From the NCBI GenBank assembly GCA_045594565.1, contig JAZNYT010000069.1, forward strand, positions 1 to 54,643: a DNA stretch of 54,643 nt. Direction: 5' to 3'. A model generated the notes under the pieces. That model saw only the letters and a list, made by a program, of their open reading frames with translations, did not search any database and was not told where the DNA came from. Position numbers and translations under genes: made by a program. Source of the DNA: Eubacteriales bacterium. GTDB taxonomy: Bacteria > Bacillota > Clostridia > Oscillospirales > SIG627. Positions 324 through 54,467 of this stretch are shown here, one piece after another (the first letter of the stretch is position 1; every line of letters begins with the position of its first letter).

Positions 324-2356
324 ATGTTTTTTCCTTCTTTTATTTCTTCAAAATATTTACGTGCACAGTCAAGCGCCAGTTTCAAAAGGCCTGTGTCTCC
401 CAACCCCGCCGTAACGGGAAGGGCAAGCTCACCGTGCTGACGGGAGCCGAAGAAGTCACCGGGGCCCCTTTCCTCAAGGTCGTACTCGGCAATCTTGAAG
501 CCGTCGGAGCATTTGGTGATAAATTCAAGGCGTGAGAGCGCCGCTTTGCTCTTAGATGCCGTAATGAAGATGCACCATGATTTTGCGCTTCCTCTGCCTA
601 TTCTGCCTCTCAGCTGATGAAGCTGTGCAAGGCCGAAGCGGTCTGCGTTTTCTATTACCATTATCGTGGCGTTGGGCACGTTTACTCCAACCTCAACGAC
701 GGTTGTGGAAACAAGTACCTTCACGTCGCCCCTTGCGAAGTCTGACATAACCTCATTTTTAACGCTCGGCTTCATTTTTCCGTGAAGAAGGGCTACTCTG
801 TGGGGAGCGAACCTCTTTTCAAGCTCCTTTTCAAGAGCGGTTGCCGATAGAAGCGTGGAACCACTTCCCCCGGAAAATTCGTTTTCGAGAGCCTCGTCCT
901 CACTGTCCTCTACGAGAGGACATATAATATATGCCTGATGTCCCGATTCGAGCTCATTTTCTATAAATCCGTACATTCTTTCTTTCTTTGAAGGAGGAAT
1001 GAGGAGAGAGGATATCTCCTGTCTTCCGGGAGGGAGCTCGTCGAGGATGGACACGTCAAGTCCTGCATATAGGAACATAGCGAGTGTTCTCGGTATAGGG
1101 GTAGCGGACATTGCAAGATTATTCTTGATTTCCGCCTTCGAGAGAAGCTTTTCCCTCTGCTTTACACCGAAGCGGTGCTGCTCGTCTGTAATTACAAGAC
1201 CGAGTCTGTAAGGAACAGTCTCTTCTTCAAAAAGAGCGTGTGTTCCTACCAGTATAAGAGGGGCGGTGGAAACAAGCCTTTCTCTTATTTTGCGTCTTTC
1301 TGCAGCCTTTGTTGAGCCTGTAAGGAGAATTACATCAAAGCCAAGCTTTTCAAAAAGGTGAGACAGTGTTTCGTGATGCTGTACCGCAAGTATTTCGGTG
1401 GGCGCCATAATATAAGCCTTTGCACCGTTTTTCAATGCTATAAAGCAGGCAGCCGCCGCAACCGCCGTCTTTCCCGAGCCAACGTCACCCTGTAAAAGAC
1501 GCCTCATGGCGCGGTGCTTTTCTTCCTTTTTTGTAAGGTCGTTTTCTATTTCGAGAATTGCCTTTTTCTGTGCCGAGGTTGGAGTGAAGCCGAGAGCCTT
1601 AAAGAAGGGTGACATATCCACCCTTTCAAAAGGCTTAACTATCTCTGTATCCTCACGTCTTTTCAGCTTCTCAGAGGCAAGGGCAAAGTCGAAAAGCTCC
1701 TCGAATATAAGCCTTTTCTTTGCCATTTCCACAAGCCCCTTTTCGGTGCAAAGGTGTATCTCGAAAAGTGCCTTTCCCAGCGGCATAAGCATCGCTTCAC
1801 GAAGGACACTTTCGGGAAGAGTTTCTTCTATATCATAAGGTGACAGGGTTGAAAGAAGCTTTGCTATAAGCTTTGCAATTTTTCCCGAAGAAAGACTTCC
1901 TACAGGGGAGTAAATGGGAACCGTATCTCTTTCGAGAGCGTCCACGCTTTCGTGGGAAGGGGAGAACATATAATATCCCGAGGGGCTTTTTACAAGCTTT
2001 CCGTAAAAGCGGTAGTCCGCCCCCTTGTGAAAGGTGTTGACGAGATAAGGCTGATTGAAAAACGCTATATGTACAGTTGGAGAGCCTTCTCTCTGCCTTG
2101 CCGAAAAGCGTACTATACGCTTTCCCGTAGGAGTGTATCCAACACTTGGAGAGGTCACTACCCTCATAATAAAAGCGTTTTTTGAATCGAGAGGAGCATC
2201 CTCCACCATATATCTCGGTGTTCTGTCCTCATAGGTTCTGGGGTAAAGACGAAGAAGGTCAAGGCAGGTGTAAATACCTGCCTTTTCAAGTGCTTCTGCT
2301 GTCTTCGGGCCAACACCGGACAAACTTGACACCGGTGTGTTTTTTATATCTGTCAT
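320..2356 (-). CDS. recG: ATP-dependent DNA helicase RecG
   Basis: Wedge domain, LLQGDVGSGKT Walker A, DEQH, SATPIPRT, QLHQLRGRIGRG, and TRG motif RGPGDFFGSRQHG. Confidence 0.97.
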   Translation of the reverse strand: MTDIKNTPVSSLSGVGPKTAEALEKAGIYTCLDLLRLYPRTYEDRTPRYMVEDAPLDSKNAFIMRVVTSPSVGYTPTGKRIVRFSARQREGSPTVHIAFFNQPYLVNTFHKGADYRFYGKLVKSPSGYYMFSPSHESVDALERDTVPIYSPVGSLSSGKIAKLIAKLLSTLSPYDIEETLPESVLREAMLMPLGKALFEIHLCTEKGLVEMAKKRLIFEELFDFALASEKLKRREDTEIVKPFERVDMSPFFKALGFTPTSAQKKAILEIENDLTKKEEKHRAMRRLLQGDVGSGKTAVAAAACFIALKNGAKAYIMAPTEILAVQHHETLSHLFEKLGFDVILLTGSTKAAERRKIRERLVSTAPLILVGTHALFEEETVPYRLGLVITDEQHRFGVKQREKLLSKAEIKNNLAMSATPIPRTLAMFLYAGLDVSILDELPPGRQEISSLLIPPSKKERMYGFIENELESGHQAYIICPLVEDSEDEALENEFSGGSGSTLLSATALEKELEKRFAPHRVALLHGKMKPSVKNEVMSDFARGDVKVLVSTTVVEVGVNVPNATIMVIENADRFGLAQLHQLRGRIGRGSAKSWCIFITASKSKAALSRLEFITKCSDGFKIAEYDLEERGPGDFFGSRQHGELALPVTAGLGDTGLLKLALDCARKYFEEIKEGKNI

Positions 2357-2886: not shown

Positions 2887-3072
2887 TTCTTAACTCCTTA
2901 TTTTTCTTTAACTATATTTTATCCAAAATCTTTTAAAAAAGCAACACAAATATTGTTTTTTTAAGAAATTTGTGCTATACTCAACCTGTGGTTGAATAAA
3001 AAATTTTCTTTTGCCTTTAAGGTAGAGGGTAAAAGTGTTATAATTTCCAAAAAAACAAGGACAGGTATAAAT

Positions 3073-12283: not shown

Positions 12284-12552
12284 TAATAATGAATAATGAA
12301 TATTGAAGATTTAATAATTTAGGATAATTTCCTTCGGAAATTTTCAATTAAATAATATTCAATAGAGGAGGATTTTCAAAAATCCCCCTCTCTTTTACTC
12401 TCCCCAAAACTATAAAAATCACTAAAGTTTTCGTGGGGGCATAAGGGGGAATTCTTTTATGAAAAGCATTCCATCTTAATATAATAAATTTAATTTTGCC
12501 TTGGGCAAAATTTTCCTTAATTATTCAATATTCATTCTTCAATATTCATTAA
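12284..12552. repeat. 7-mer-arm element, copy A (carries a REP-like insert)
   Basis: Left arm of (GAATAAT/GAATATT/GAAGATT)n plus hairpin AATTTCCTTCGGAAATT; right hairpin AATTTTGCCTTGGGCAAAATT plus inverted 7-mers. Both ends match the reverse complement of 53692-54232. Confidence 0.85.
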
Positions 12553-12581
12553 AAAAGTATGTGCCGAGCACATACTTTTTT
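12551..12581 (-). terminator. Rho-independent terminator of the AEC transporter gene
   Basis: AAAAAAGTATGTGC-CGA-GCACATACTTTTTT (bidirectional shape). Confidence 0.8.
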
Positions 12582-18199: not shown

Positions 18200-18475
18200 T
18201 ATTTTGGTTAAAACCGAAAATGAAAATTTTCAGTTTTTACTACAAAACACTTTCTAAAGAGAAAGTGCTATCACAACAGAATTAAGTTATATGACTTTAT
18301 AATGTAGAAAGACGAGGATTCACCTCGTCTTTCTTTCATTTATTCCAAATTTCATTTTCTTCGCGTGTTGCTCGGACTGCTGTACAAAGTACAGCGACGC
18401 CTTCGCACTCCGCGATTTTACCTCAAAATCTCTGCGCTTTTTGGTAAAGCTTGACCTTTTGGTTAAAACCGAAAA
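18188..18475. repeat. Direct-repeat-bounded structured element, copy 1
   Basis: 33-bp direct repeats (31/33 identical) at 18188-18220 and 18443-18475; interior colinear with 52698-52957. Confidence 0.85.
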
Positions 18476-18479
18476 CAGT

Positions 18480-18504: not shown

Positions 18505-18637
18505 TAATGGAAAATTGAAAATTGAAAATGGAAAATTAAGGTGAATTTTGCTTGAAGCAAAATTAAAATTGATTGTGATTTTGGCAAAGCCAAAATGTCC
18601 GAAATTATTCAATTTTTATTCTTCAATATTCATTATT
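18505..18637. repeat. 7-mer-arm element, copy B (empty)
   Basis: (GAAAATT/GAAAATG)n-AAGGTG-AATTTTGCTTGAAGCAAAATT, 13-bp centre, ATTTTGGCAAAGCCAAAAT, then inverted 7-mers (ATTCTTC AATATTC). The left junction is nearly identical to 53727-53752. Confidence 0.8.
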
Positions 18638-42090: not shown

Positions 42091-42255
42091 ATGAAATCGT
42101 GCAAATCACGATGAAATCCAAACAAGTTTGGATGAAATCCTCGCTCGGCTCGGATGAAATTAAATCCGTCTTAATATATCCGCCGAAGGCGATTTCATCA
42201 GCGAAGCAGATTTCATCCTCTGACTGAGGATTTATCCCGTCACAAGACGGATTTA
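42091..42255. repeat. ATGAAATC/GATTTCAT hairpin array
   Basis: ATGAAAT at 42091, 42111, 42132, 42154; GATTTCAT at 42191, 42209 and a variant at 42229; TAAATCCGTCTT (42161) pairs with AAGACGGATTTA (42244). Confidence 0.8.
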
Positions 42256-42783: not shown

Positions 42784-42866
42784 TGGTGCGCTTGACAGGA
42801 CTTGAACCTGCACGTGAAGACACTAGATCCTAAGTCTAGGGCGTCTGCCAATTCCGCCACAAGCGC
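42784..42866 (-). tRNA. tRNA-Leu (anticodon TAG)
   Basis: GCGCTTGTGGCGGAATTGGCAGACGCCCTAGACTTAGGATCTAGTGTCTTCACGTGCAGGTTCAAGTCCTGTCAAGCGCACCA: acceptor GCGCTTG/CAAGCGC, anticodon loop CTTAGGA, variable arm, T-loop TTCAAGT, encoded CCA. Confidence 0.97.
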
Positions 42867-52697: not shown

Positions 52698-52957
52698 AAG
52701 CTTGACCTTTTGGCTAAAACCGAAAATGAAAAGTTTCGGTTTTAGGGTACAACACTTTTCAAAAAGAAAGTGCGAACAAAGAGTAGTCAAGCTATTGATT
52801 TTTTTAAGGTAGAAAATCTGCGATTTTCTTCTTGTTTATTTCAAATTTCATTTTCTTCGCACCTCTCTCGCACTGCCGTACCGAGTACGCCGACGGCTTC
52901 GAGATGCACGATTTTATCTCAAAATCTCATCGCTTTTTGGGGCTTGATATTTTGGTT
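52698..52957. repeat. Direct-repeat-bounded structured element, copy 2 (cysE-cysS spacer)
   Basis: Starts AAGCTTGACCTTTTGGCTAAAACCGAAAA, ends GCTTGATATTTTGGTT; interior colinear with 18188-18475. Confidence 0.85.
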
Positions 52958-52965
52958 TTATGAGA

Positions 52966-53043
52966 GAAAACTTTTATGCTTATTTATCATAGTTTTCGTG
53001 GGAGTGCAAGGGGGAGTGCTTTTATAAAAAGCATTACCCCTTA
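52966..53043. repeat. REP-like hairpin repeat
   Basis: AGTTTTCGTGGGAGTGCAAGGGGGAGTGCTTTTATAAAAAGCATTACCCCTT is closely similar to 12426-12477. Confidence 0.75.
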
Positions 53044-53047
53044 AATA

Positions 53048-53677
53048 TCATTTATTATTTATTTTTTCAAGTTCTTTCTTTAGTCTGTCTATTTCTGCCT
53101 GTAATTTGCAAAGCTCTTGGGACACAGGGTCGGGAATGTGTACTTGGTCAAGGTCGAGGGTTCTCTCGCCACCGATTTTCACGACTCTTGCTGGAGCGCC
53201 GACAGCCGTTGAGTCGGGCGGTATCTCCGAAAGCACTACCGAGCCTGCCGCAATCTTTGCACGGTCCCCCACCTTAAAAGGCCCTAGCACCTTAGCTCCT
53301 GCACCTACAAGCACGTTGTTGCCAAGTGTAGGGTGACGCTTTCCCGTGTCCTTACCCGTACCGCCAAGGGTCACTCCCTGATAGAGAGTACATTCGTCAC
53401 CGATTTCGGCAGTCTCACCGATAACCACTCCCGAGCCGTGGTCAATGAAAAGCCCACGCCCGATGGTAGCACCTGGATGTATCTCAATGCCCGTGAAAAA
53501 TCTGCCAAGCTGTGATATGAGACGTGCTATGAAAAACATATGATAAACGTAGAAGAAATGTGCTATTCTGTAATAGATAAGCGCGTGAAAGCCCGAATAC
53601 AGAAAGAATATTTCAAAAACGCTTCTTGCCGCAGGGTCACGGGATTTGATGGATTTAAGGTCATCTATGATTTTCAT
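53048..53677 (-). CDS. cysE: Serine O-acetyltransferase
   Basis: RDPAARS, TGIEIHPGATIG.GLFIDHG.GVVIGET, GGTGKDTGKRHPT, hexapeptide repeats. Confidence 0.97.
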   Translation of the reverse strand: MKIIDDLKSIKSRDPAARSVFEIFFLYSGFHALIYYRIAHFFYVYHMFFIARLISQLGRFFTGIEIHPGATIGRGLFIDHGSGVVIGETAEIGDECTLYQGVTLGGTGKDTGKRHPTLGNNVLVGAGAKVLGPFKVGDRAKIAAGSVVLSEIPPDSTAVGAPARVVKIGGERTLDLDQVHIPDPVSQELCKLQAEIDRLKKELEKINNK

Positions 53678-53691
53678 GTATATCTCCTGAA

Positions 53692-54232
53692 AATAATGAA
53701 TAATGAATATTGAATATTGAATAATTAAGGTGAATTTTGCTTAAGCAAAATTTCCGTTTTATTATTTGAGGTTATTATTTTTAGCTGTATTTATAGAAGC
53801 AATTAAAATTTTCTTTATTTCAATACAATCCAAAAGTAAAGAATCTTTTTGTGAATCCGAAACGTATTCTGCTTTATGAAGCAATTTTATCCAGTACTCT
53901 GTTTCTGCACACTCTTTTAATGCAATATGCAATTTGGATATAAAATCAGCGGAGCTTTGTGCGTAATTTGCTTCATTTATGTTTGCTCCGATAGACGTAC
54001 CACTGCGAATTACTTGCTTAGATACAGTAAATTCTTTTTTATCCATAAGAAATTTATATAAGTTCATTATCCTTGCGGCAAAATCTATGCTTTTTTCGGT
54101 TAATATATTATCTTTCATAAAATCCTTTGTTTTGTAACCATATTTTATAACGCAATTGAAATACAAATAAAATTGAAAATTTCCGAAGGAAATTAACCAA
54201 AATTATTCATTCTTCAATCTTCATTATTCATT
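53692..54232. mobile_element. 7-mer-arm element, copy C, carrying a four-helix-bundle gene
   Basis: Arms 53692-53752 and 54171-54232 are imperfect inverted 7-mer arrays, each with an inner hairpin; AT-rich cargo. Mobility is inferred, not shown. Confidence 0.7.
53762..54118 (-). CDS. Four-helix-bundle protein (TIGR02436 / 23S rRNA-IVS protein family)
   Basis: KSIDFAARI, SKQVIRSGTSIGANINEA..AQS.ADFISKLHIALKE..ETEYWIKLL; AAAGGA RBS before ATG 54118. Confidence 0.92.
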   Translation of the reverse strand: MKDNILTEKSIDFAARIMNLYKFLMDKKEFTVSKQVIRSGTSIGANINEANYAQSSADFISKLHIALKECAETEYWIKLLHKAEYVSDSQKDSLLLDCIEIKKILIASINTAKNNNLK

Positions 54233-54412
54233 AAAAAAGCACCTCTTGAATTCTCAAGAGGTGCTTTTGCACGGTTCCACTCTTATTTTTCGCTTTTTAC
54301 TTTCACTTTGAAGGTGTTTAGACCGCACTTTCACGAATACCTCAGCTTAAATGCTCACACCAACCGCATTCTCTCTGGAAGCCTTTTTCTCCGTTACTCT
54401 TGTCCTCTTTTT
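54233..54412 (-). ncRNA. T-box riboswitch with Cys (TGC) specifier
   Basis: Minus strand: GAGGAC..AGTA, AGAGAGAATGCGGTTGGTGTGA stem-I apex, GAAAG-TGC-GGTC specifier (54325-54327), T-box AATAAGAGTGGAACCGTG, terminator AAAAGCACCTCTTGAG-AATT-CAAGAGGTGCTTTTTT; upstream of cysE-cysS. Confidence 0.9.
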
Positions 54413-54438
54413 AAGGAAAGCATATTAAATTCATAGGT

Positions 54439-54467
54439 ATTTTAACACATTTTTTTAAATCCGTCAA
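54439..54467 (-). promoter_or_regulatory. sigma-A promoter of the T-box/cys operon
   Basis: Minus strand TTGACG-17 bp-TAAAAT with TG. Confidence 0.75.

Follow-up and report, generated by a model that had tools for sequence, protein, structure and literature searches.

What is a gene for a small four-helix-bundle (4HB) protein, enclosed by mirror-image arrays of a seven-nucleotide word, doing in the leader of a cysE-cysS operon? The cassette in question lies near one end of a 54,643-nt contig (JAZNYT010000069.1 of GenBank assembly GCA_045594565.1, Eubacteriales bacterium; hereafter "the window", meaning this whole stretch), which belongs to an Oscillospiraceae metagenome-assembled genome of 2.02 Mb in 126 contigs that is 90.69% complete (G000 below). 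A first-pass annotation, made from the window sequence alone, had proposed a compact mobile or RNA-level element with empty and re-loaded siblings. We compared the cassette with related loci, with the other genomes of its genus and with a sample of the phylum, and found a discrete insert whose gene-less copies are dispersed through the genome and whose repeat word follows the clade of the protein. On balance we favor the view that the cassette is a selfish element of the intervening sequence (IVS) type that has settled in the leader of an mRNA and not in an rRNA gene and has given rise to derivatives resembling MITEs (miniature transposable elements with inverted repeats).

A 4HB gene between inverted heptamer arms

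The cassette lies on the minus strand in the same orientation as cysE, with a T-box leader's terminator on one side and the start codon of cysE on the other (Table 1). The inverted heptamer arms that had been described around the 4HB gene are indeed present, and their complementarity extends over 44 nt at 86% (53694-53737 and 54190-54233, 452 nt apart), longer than the ~34 nt originally claimed. Each arm holds four tandem heptamers of the form GAAKWWT, at 53698-53725 on the plus strand and at 54202-54229 on the minus strand. The 5'-side arm begins immediately after the terminator T-run. The 3'-side arm, whose four heptamers run in the opposite sense and are separated from its hairpin by a CACCTTA junction, ends 14 nt before the cysE ATG (53677) and 7 nt before the cysE AGGAG. 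Contig loose ends in other metagenomes place the boundaries of the repeat at 54233-54238 on the 5' side and at 53692-53694 on the 3' side. Between the 5'-side hairpin and the open reading frame (ORF) is a stretch of ~60 nt that contains a ribosome-binding site (RBS)-like AAAGGA 6 nt 5' of the ATG.

That these arms are a product of chance or of low-complexity sequence has practically no probability. In this AT-rich region, 7-mers rich in A and T do come up repeatedly by chance, but the tests reported here of arm complementarity, motif enrichment, half-sites, word arrays, phylum loci and hairpins all beat their controls, which refutes this explanation. The motif GAATAATGAATA, allowing up to two mismatches, occurs 31 times in the window as compared to 8.8 ± 3.3 expected, and none of 100 shuffles reached 31.

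The minus strand between 53000 and 54643 contains a single promoter-like match. It stands 5' of the T-box leader, and transcription of the leader, the cassette and cysE-cysS probably starts from it. Since no promoter-like site belongs to the cassette itself, which faces the same way as cysE, its transcription is expected only on read-through of the T-box. A T-box leader also precedes cysE in relatives. At gathering thresholds, Rfam returned one tRNA alone for the whole window and no rRNA. Matches to RsaE, PyrR and other families over the arm (E up to 1) were rejected, being far under their thresholds and leaning on the terminator hairpin.

The ORF at 53762-54118 matches both PF05635 (E = 1.6e-29, 102.6 bits; cut-off 33.8) and TIGR02436 (E = 5.2e-32, 110.3 bits; cut-off 24), and a Pfam search at E values up to 10 gave no second family and no transposase family. 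The nearest solved structure is 2RLD (E = 1.3e-39), an entry of five chains, and a pentamer has been reported in the literature for the family member Xcc0516; by homology, the window protein would be a four-helix-bundle homopentamer. The conserved family motif GxxRxxxSxxxNxxE (Zhang et al. 2013) reads R-SGT-S-IGA-N-IN-E in the window protein, with Q replacing the leading G. Across 55 proteins of the genus, S42, N46 and E49 are invariant or nearly so, as are Q35, D58, K62, K68, E69, E72 and W76, while class-specific residues lie at position 20 and at positions 51-55. The 4HB protein is under purifying selection, with a dN/dS of 0.17 between the window gene and its relative in genome G014 and of 0.03-0.17 in the six of nine 4HB gene pairs for which dS could be computed.

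Different cassettes occupy one site, and one cassette type several sites

Among 80 loci fetched as CysE relatives, only one (L001) has a 4HB ORF at cysE. The distance from the T-box core to the cysE ATG is 68-175 nt in eight loci with a cysE match starting at locus position 3001, 556 nt in L001, and ~590 nt in the window by our own reading. The L001 cassette has GAAAATT-type arms and a protein of a different 4HB clade from that in the window. L093, a locus of the genus, has the same arrangement (it is possibly the same genome as L001, and the two were counted once); its occupant protein is only 51.7% identical to the window protein, whereas the CysE proteins are 84% identical. L002, also with a CysE 84% identical, lacks the cassette. 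These observations show the cassette to be a discrete insert, in support of this part of the earlier interpretation.

The closest relative of the window protein (78% identical) was found in another species, between a thioredoxin-like gene and trxB. A segment of G000 (C109:131-328) aligns on both sides to this intact cassette locus of the sister species and is an in-situ deletion remnant of a cassette: ~356 nt of the ORF are gone, whereas its last codons, the terminator and the two arms with their hairpins are still there. Together, the comparisons of the cysE and C109 loci indicate that one site can hold different cassettes, that one cassette type can occupy different sites, and that cassettes decay in place to gene-less forms.

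Gene-less copies are dispersed through the genome

Two siblings of the cassette reside in the window itself. The one at 18507-18637, described at first as the same arms standing empty, is gene-less, but its arms are hybrid rather than of one identical type; it contains a pair of hairpins (fold z -3.1 and -3.8) and directly follows a terminator. The other, at 12285-12555, does contain the insert resembling a repetitive extragenic palindrome (REP) that had been noted between its arms: the 143-nt filler is an inverted pair of a separate REP-like repeat. Its terminator-side arm shares the CCTTCGG hairpin with the cysE cassette, as the annotation had pointed out, and the same hairpin recurs in the C109 remnant. 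By sequence reading, an arm at each of the three window sites starts 0-3 nt after a hairpin and T-run, again as first described.

Profile searches of the G000 contigs with both element halves identified 132 half-sites, comprising 50 pairs and 32 solo halves, many of the latter at contig ends; gene-less siblings are numerous in G000, and most of the elements are of this kind. In 39 of the 50 pairs the halves are separated by at most 5 nt, and in the other 11 by 24-417 nt of cargo. A typical unit of ~125-135 nt consists of heptamers, hairpin 1, ATAATTGATTGTG, hairpin 2 and heptamers, and the median pairwise identity among 36 full gene-less units is ~80%. Several pairs of copies are at least 95% identical and have flanks that are alike at chance level only. 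The elements at C33:9645 and C75:308 are 96.4% identical (flanks 28% and 18%), and those at C110:27613 and C23:5090 are 95.2% identical (flanks 30% and 33%). The number of heptamers, which ranges from 3 to 8, differs between near-identical copies. Element DNA is present in 11 of 15 sister species, while of 15 genomes from beyond the genus 2 gave weak matches, and matches to the A-type arm number 184 in G000, 96 and 51 in the next genus genomes, and 0 in four. To judge from these searches, the element family is restricted to the genus. A de novo scan of the genome for two-armed 7-mers was noisy and provided leads only.

Of the two hairpins, inner hairpin 2 is kept by compensatory change and covaries strongly. 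In 34 elements from five genomes, 97.8% of its cells are paired as compared to 78.1% in shuffles (0/500), and 47 cells are changed on both sides as compared to 17.9 (0/500 shuffles reach this number); slid controls pair at no more than 61%. For hairpin 1 the support is the count of perfect stems alone: 67 of 100 halves have one, and 19 different stems of the form AATTT(T)SS(S) occur. RNAalifold missed this hairpin on alignment A1, where gaps in the loops had shifted the stems out of register.

Several further observations concern individual copies. The gene-less element at G000:C76:13568-13701 is kept at the same locus in L148 (G003:C33) and L155 (G014:C88), with similar heptamers and with hairpin stems that differ by compensatory change (GCC/GGC versus CCC/GGG). 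An "inside-out" arrangement, in which an ATTATTC array is followed after 12-50 nt by a GAATAAT array, stands upstream of Ai-clade 4HB genes in L107 (G005:C95) and L120 (G001:C11). The same order (right arm, a ~12-nt spacer starting TCC, left arm) occurs in contigs of the public runs X1, X2 and X4, and none was found in G000. Parts of the stretch occur in 20 public runs, four of which were examined, all as contigs. Depth in these rises sharply over the arms, since the repeat is common to many loci and organisms. Contig joints that skip 468-485 nt were considered as excision at the cysE cassette and rejected, since the joints are other gene-less copies.

The repeat word follows the protein clade

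G000 carries five 4HB genes. Two are bracketed by tandem heptamers, GAATAWT in the window and GAAAATT on C110; two (C13 and C121) have an upstream two-armed array of ATGAAATC words alternating with hairpins; and at the remaining one GATGATATAC words alternate with hairpins. The suggestion that CGATAT and ATGAAATC arrays are parallel families was therefore well founded, as both accompany further genes of the 4HB family. A degenerate sixth gene may lie at G000:C12:3086-3424, inside a CGATATA two-orientation array, where phmmer gave a weak match to the 4HB protein (E = 0.071).

There are a total of 58 4HB genes in 16 genomes of the genus. An exact-7-mer two-orientation test was passed by 42 of these 58 loci as compared to 147 of 1572 control genes, and a stricter version by 30 of 58 as compared to 45 of 1572; the exact test misses degenerate arrays, and several of the 16 "negatives" show arrays by eye. 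The arms are thus tied to the 4HB family elsewhere in the genus, and the same holds across the phylum (below). We assigned 26 word labels by eye to the 58 loci, whose arrays use ~20 different words. Placed on the tree of the 58 proteins, the labels require 27 changes (minimum 25; shuffled mean 48.6), a number as low as which was reached in 0 of 200 shuffles, and all 14 tandem-heptamer cassettes carry proteins of a single clade (support 100/97). Word type follows protein clade; because close kin share labels by descent, the label test shows clustering and not co-evolution.

Two natural chimeras join halves of different protein types. In L115 the N-terminal half is 92% identical to one type and the C-terminal half 77% to another, and in L113 the values are 83% and 82%. 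Both retain the array that matches their N-terminal half, a match that is no more than suggestive because the array is physically linked to the N-half. The gene-less elements of G004 have the same backbone as those of G000 and bear TAGAAAT/GAGAAAT arms like those of the resident cassette of G004. C-type arrays are found in 4 of the 16 genomes, and both C-type genes reside in the two richest of these.

Placement of the elements and candidate enzymes

On a crude ORF map, the elements of G000 are all intergenic. Among the 33 with both neighbors resolved, the flanking genes are in tandem in 23 cases, convergent in 10 and divergent in none, as compared to a divergent share of 21% among G000 intergenic regions (P = 4e-4). 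A terminator-like flank, defined as a strong hairpin with a minimum free energy (MFE) of -12 kcal/mol or lower in 45 nt, accompanies 19 of 50 elements and 103 of 600 random intergenic positions (Fisher p = 0.001), and a T-run lies just outside the arm at 38 of 104 half-sites against a background of 9%. The claim that the element sits at terminators thus holds for all three sites in the window and becomes a tendency in the genome at large (38% of elements): the association is a real bias, not a rule. Many other copies extend to a stop codon or to the RBS of the next gene, and contigs break at elements.

A placement of this kind bears on the possibility that the 4HB protein serves the host as a ring-shaped, attenuation-like regulator. 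The arrays behind terminators would then be operators that tune read-through or expression and have spread because they are useful, and the gene would lie in a site of its own type for autoregulation. All 33 resolved elements face at least one gene 3' end and they often abut the RBS of the next gene; according to an automated call, 8 of the 11 cassettes of the flank type are followed downstream by a co-oriented gene within ~125 nt; and cassettes of the upstream-array type have their own promoter between array and gene. The strong purifying selection on the protein and the conservation of some elements, with compensatory changes in their hairpins, at orthologous positions of three species also agree with such a regulon. 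We nevertheless consider it unlikely, as arm matches vary from 0 to 184 between sister species and near-identical copies stand in unrelated flanks, and contigs break at elements. Moreover, ~20 word classes, each with its own small protein, are a better fit to selfish diversification, and the same design is found inside rRNA and RNase P RNA genes, where an operator would be senseless.

Among enzymes that might act on the element, G000 encodes RNase III, one IS200-type Y1 transposase and one TnpB match, and there are no matches to RVT_1 in this genome at its completeness of 90.69%. The first-pass statement that no mobilizing enzyme accompanies the cassette was supported for the two kinds checked, since neither the Y1 transposase nor a reverse transcriptase is tied to the arms. 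It is quite improbable that we are dealing with an ordinary MITE or REP family moved in trans by a conventional transposase, with the 4HB gene as passive cargo or a mere neighbor. Such a family would have the terminal inverted repeats, subterminal hairpins and many gene-less copies observed here, and its transposase could be the Y1 or TnpB protein or be encoded in the ~9% of the genome that is missing. However, the ends of the Y1 transposase are unrelated GC-rich hairpins without heptamers, the arrays are tied to the 4HB gene in the genus (42/58 loci against 147/1572 controls) and phylum-wide with different words, the tandem-heptamer cassettes (14/14) belong to one protein clade, and no target-site duplication is seen.

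The prospects of a retroelement are very slim. The 4HB protein would in that case be a cofactor, similar to Avd of diversity-generating retroelements (DGRs), of a reverse transcriptase that copies the armed RNA into DNA. The first-pass annotation held the 4HB family to be structurally related to Avd, and the preference for sites after terminators recalls that of group IIC introns, but G000 has no RVT_1 match, the cassettes are just ~545 nt long, and no pair of template and variable repeats was seen in the flanks that were read, which were given no dedicated search.

The association extends across the phylum

From 121 evenly drawn genomes of the phylum, 26 of which contain the family, 30 loci were returned and 26 analyzed; two short contigs, one partial match and the window itself were left out. 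Inverted complementarity between the upstream and downstream flanks was above the 95th percentile of controls at 15 of the 26 loci and above the 99th at 10, and 7-nt periodicity was above the 95th percentile at 12. Lag 7 beats lags 6 and 8 at 20 of the 26 loci as compared to 107 of 300 controls. The words vary by locus and include CTAGTAA, GCAGGTA, TAGCTGA, CAGGAGA, GTGATGG, TAGTTGA and GACAATT, among others.

Three of these loci lie inside genes for structured RNAs. L172 (G094:C45) and L173 (G110:C1) are 23S rRNA IVSs with a 4HB gene and tandem heptamer arms of the GGTTAGA/TGTTAGA type. In L177 (G082:C1, locus 1229-2003, minus strand) the host gene is that of the RNase P class A RNA (RF00010, 294 bits), which measures 775 nt as compared to the 367 positions of the model and holds a 4HB insert with heptamer arms of the GGAAGTT/GGAGGTG type. 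The 4HB family has also been listed among genes near CRISPR loci or arrays, as 18 genes in cas loci and in a figure legend (PMC3936711, PMC10910872); it is a matter of speculation that arrays of words and hairpins are picked up by CRISPR-array finders.

A model for the cassette and the evidence against it

The cassette, which we favor as an IVS-type selfish element, consists of a 4HB (S23p/IVP-family) gene between two mirror modules, each made of ~4 heptamer words and a hairpin. By analogy with rRNA IVSs, the arms of the transcript would pair into a stem of ~38 bp that is cut by RNase III; thanks to this cutting, transcripts could tolerate the insertion and the 4HB mRNA would be set free. The 4HB pentamer may read the periodic words on single-stranded nucleic acid, much as TRAP reads spaced triplets, and the reading of words would serve the spread or upkeep of the element. 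Copying to new sites would use host functions and favor the 3' side of sites with a hairpin and T-run. Excision at the RNA level, word binding by the protein and the copying mechanism are parts of the model that we infer. A broader proposal can be formulated, which we regard as tentative and rather doubtful: 4HB pentamers would be sequence-specific readers of periodic 7-nt words on single-stranded nucleic acid and, with their arrays, form a very widespread class of transposase-less mobile cassettes that spans rRNA IVSs, Gut-1, heptamer-repeat MITEs, and inserts in mRNA leaders and RNase P RNA. RNase III excision would confer tolerance on the members of this class, and each protein clade would have evolved its own word.

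A number of observations weigh against the selfish-element model or parts of it. The annotation had suggested that paired arms loop out the cargo, and such pairing is indeed predicted for the cassette RNA, in its centroid as well as its MFE structure (-105.7 kcal/mol, z -2.64). However, arm-arm complementarity within elements (78.7%) hardly differs from that between elements (77.6%; permutation p = 0.26; based on the 22 elements, out of 50, with both sides parsed), and hybrid-arm elements with two word types exist at window 18507-18637, G004:C2 and G001:C23. The lack of within-element covariation and the hybrid arms imply that the stem is a by-product of two arrays of the same word and not a co-evolved helix; the arms are arrays of the degenerate word G-A-A-N-A-W-T, and no selection for a long stem is visible. 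The ends show no direct repeat indicative of a target-site duplication, although their A/T-rich partial heptamers (AAT...ATT) would hide a short one. No DNA-moving enzyme was found tied to the arms with respect to Y1 and RVT_1, the TnpB match being unexamined and other transposase families unsearched. There is no precise empty site at cysE, the L002 interval being too diverged to fix boundaries. Some elements are orthologous across three species and therefore old, so that not every copy is a recent insertion, and the one RNA run covers only cysE and the far end of the window and leaves the cassette uncovered.

The link between word and protein is also open to objection. Binding of the repeats by the 4HB protein is suggested by their co-variation, but physical linkage alone can explain this co-variation as well as both chimeras. 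The sole C-type gene of G004 (L092, G004:C15:22700-23014) has an in-frame TAA, yet no other genome of the genus has as many C-type arm matches as G004 (54). In genomes that are 81-91% complete, G003 and G010 have A-type arm matches (51 and 20) with no A-clade gene found, and C-type arms occur in G007 and G000, where a C-type gene is lacking.

G000 provides a compact system in which these ideas can be tested, with an intact cassette in a riboswitch leader, a cassette with a second word, ~50 gene-less derivatives, hybrid arms and a decay product; to these are added the two N-half/C-half chimeras, and the ~20 word classes of the genus offer a comparison set for mutual specificity. If RNase III does cut here, the T-box leader would be split from the cysE-cysS message, an unreported kind of mRNA processing.

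Features of the window and other repeats

Table 1. Coordinates of the cassette, its surroundings and its two siblings in the window.
Feature	Position	Strand	Remarks
Promoter-like site	54439..54467	-	TTGACG-17-TAAAAT, with TG; 5' of T-box leader
T-box leader of cysE-cysS operon	54254..54413	-	RF00230, E 5.3e-12, 58.7 bits (gathering score 93, hence under threshold); match spans the whole model (1-219)
T-box terminator hairpin	54235..54268	-	15-bp perfect stem, 4-nt loop, then T-run
5'-side arm	54190..54236	-	Heptamers GAATAAT GAAGATT GAAGAAT GAATAAT (54229-54202) and TTTGG junction
5'-side inner hairpin (CCTTCGG)	54178..54194	-	AATTTCC-TTC-GGAAATT on minus strand, read from sequence
4HB protein gene	53762..54118	-	118 aa and stop; PF05635, TIGR02436
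3'-side inner hairpin	53733..53752	-	AATTTTGCTT/AAGCAAAATT
3'-side arm	53692..53737	-	Complement of GAATAAT GAATATT GAATATT GAATAAT (53698-53725, plus strand)
cysE, serine acetyltransferase	53048..53677	-	Gene whose leader holds the cassette
Gene-less element, hybrid arms	18507..18637	+	Left arm GGAAAAT/GAAAATT type, right arm GAATAWT type
Element with split halves	12285..12555	+	143 nt between halves; terminators on both sides

Four other repeats were observed in the course of this work. The REP-like repeat consists of TATAGTTTTCGTGGGRG followed by a GGGGAGTGCTTTT...AAAAGCAYTCCCC hairpin and occurs in the window at 12360-12480 and 52978-53060. It has 56 loose motif matches in G000, of which ~35 are clear copies; ~9 copies lie at most 70 nt from a heptamer half-site, and one lies between cysE and cysS. 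Repeat X (AAGCTTGATATTTTGGYTAAAACCGAAAA...) is found in the window at 18201-18221, 18456-18476 and 52707-52727, with 58 matches in G000 that are mostly located just 5' of a gene's RBS. A heptamer element follows within 80 nt in 14 of the 58 copies, where X is shortened to ...CCGAAAACNGTTTTTAAT; the pairing of X and element is also seen in G004, and X may be a preferred target or an outer module. At 42091-42217, ~570 nt from a tRNA gene (42787-42866), there is a two-orientation array of ATGAAAT (4 forward, 2 reverse) without a 4HB gene, which is probably a gene-less Gut-1-type array. Short tandem palindromic runs of ATGATATCATGATATCAT... occur at ~10 or more sites, among them G000:C77:3515-3572, C84:20707-20764 and C104:293-334.

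Comparison with known systems

Our literature search found no heptamer-armed 4HB cassettes outside rRNA and no MITE-like derivatives of them; in the papers searched, the heptamers of the Coxiella IVS alone are reported. The resemblance to Avd lies in the small helical bundle and, going by Xcc0516 in the literature and the five chains of 2RLD, the pentamer. Unlike the genome of a DGR, G000 contains 0 RVT_1 matches.

As in REPIN-RAYT systems and MITEs, a protein gene is flanked by its own type of inverted repeat, the same repeat is dispersed between genes as short palindromic gene-less doublets, and the repeat type differs by protein clade; terminal inverted repeats and many copies in unrelated flanks are likewise MITE traits. 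In contrast to both, the protein is a 118-aa helical bundle and not an HUH/Y1 or DDE transposase, the arms are arrays of 7-nt words rather than a unique terminal sequence, and no target-site duplication was seen at the ends, whose base composition would hide a short one. Nor is there a Y1 (HUH) RAYT gene flanked by the arm repeat, the ends of the sole Y1 gene of G000 being unrelated.

The arrays 5' of the 4HB genes on C13 and C121 match Gut-1 (RF01706) on both strands at 39-46 bits, under the gathering score of 50. They share with it the word UGAAAU repeated between hairpins and the two mirror arms, whereas in the window no hairpins separate the words, which are in tandem, and the gene has one arm on each side rather than two upstream; the window arms matched no Rfam family, Gut-1 included. 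Weinberg et al. (2010, PMC2864571) count Gut-1 among likely non-coding RNAs, and we found no literature linking it to a 4HB gene. In G000, one protein family connects this curated "non-coding RNA" family with anonymous heptamer repeats.

The link to rRNA intervening sequences, which the first-pass annotation had drawn from the protein family, is strong. ORF-bearing 23S rRNA IVSs are known from Leptospira and Coxiella (Ralph & McClelland 1993, cited in PMC4990558), and more than 25 years after their description neither the function of the encoded protein nor the mechanism of mobility has been assigned. The Coxiella burnetii IVS has two or three tandem heptamers (GACAGAT) beside its S23p ORF, in a number that varies by strain, and a 28-bp terminal stem, and RNase III cuts at the start of the first repeat (Warrier et al. 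2016, PMC4990558). The same paper cites the old idea that the IVS ORF serves mobility, and its authors judge the ORF of their IVS expendable, whereas the window protein is under purifying selection. The window cassette also differs in that it lies in a T-box/cysE mRNA leader and not in an rRNA helix, has an extra hairpin inside each arm, and belongs to a family with ~50 gene-less derivatives in one genome; RNase III excision, shown for the rRNA IVS, would here have to be presumed. In the remaining respects the two are alike: both encode the same protein family (S23p is PF05635) in ~430-550 nt, are sporadic in distribution without a known mobility enzyme, have terminal inverted repeats that form a stem (44 nt at 86% and a predicted fold in the window cassette), and carry tandem heptamers of variable copy number beside the ORF, four on each side in the window.

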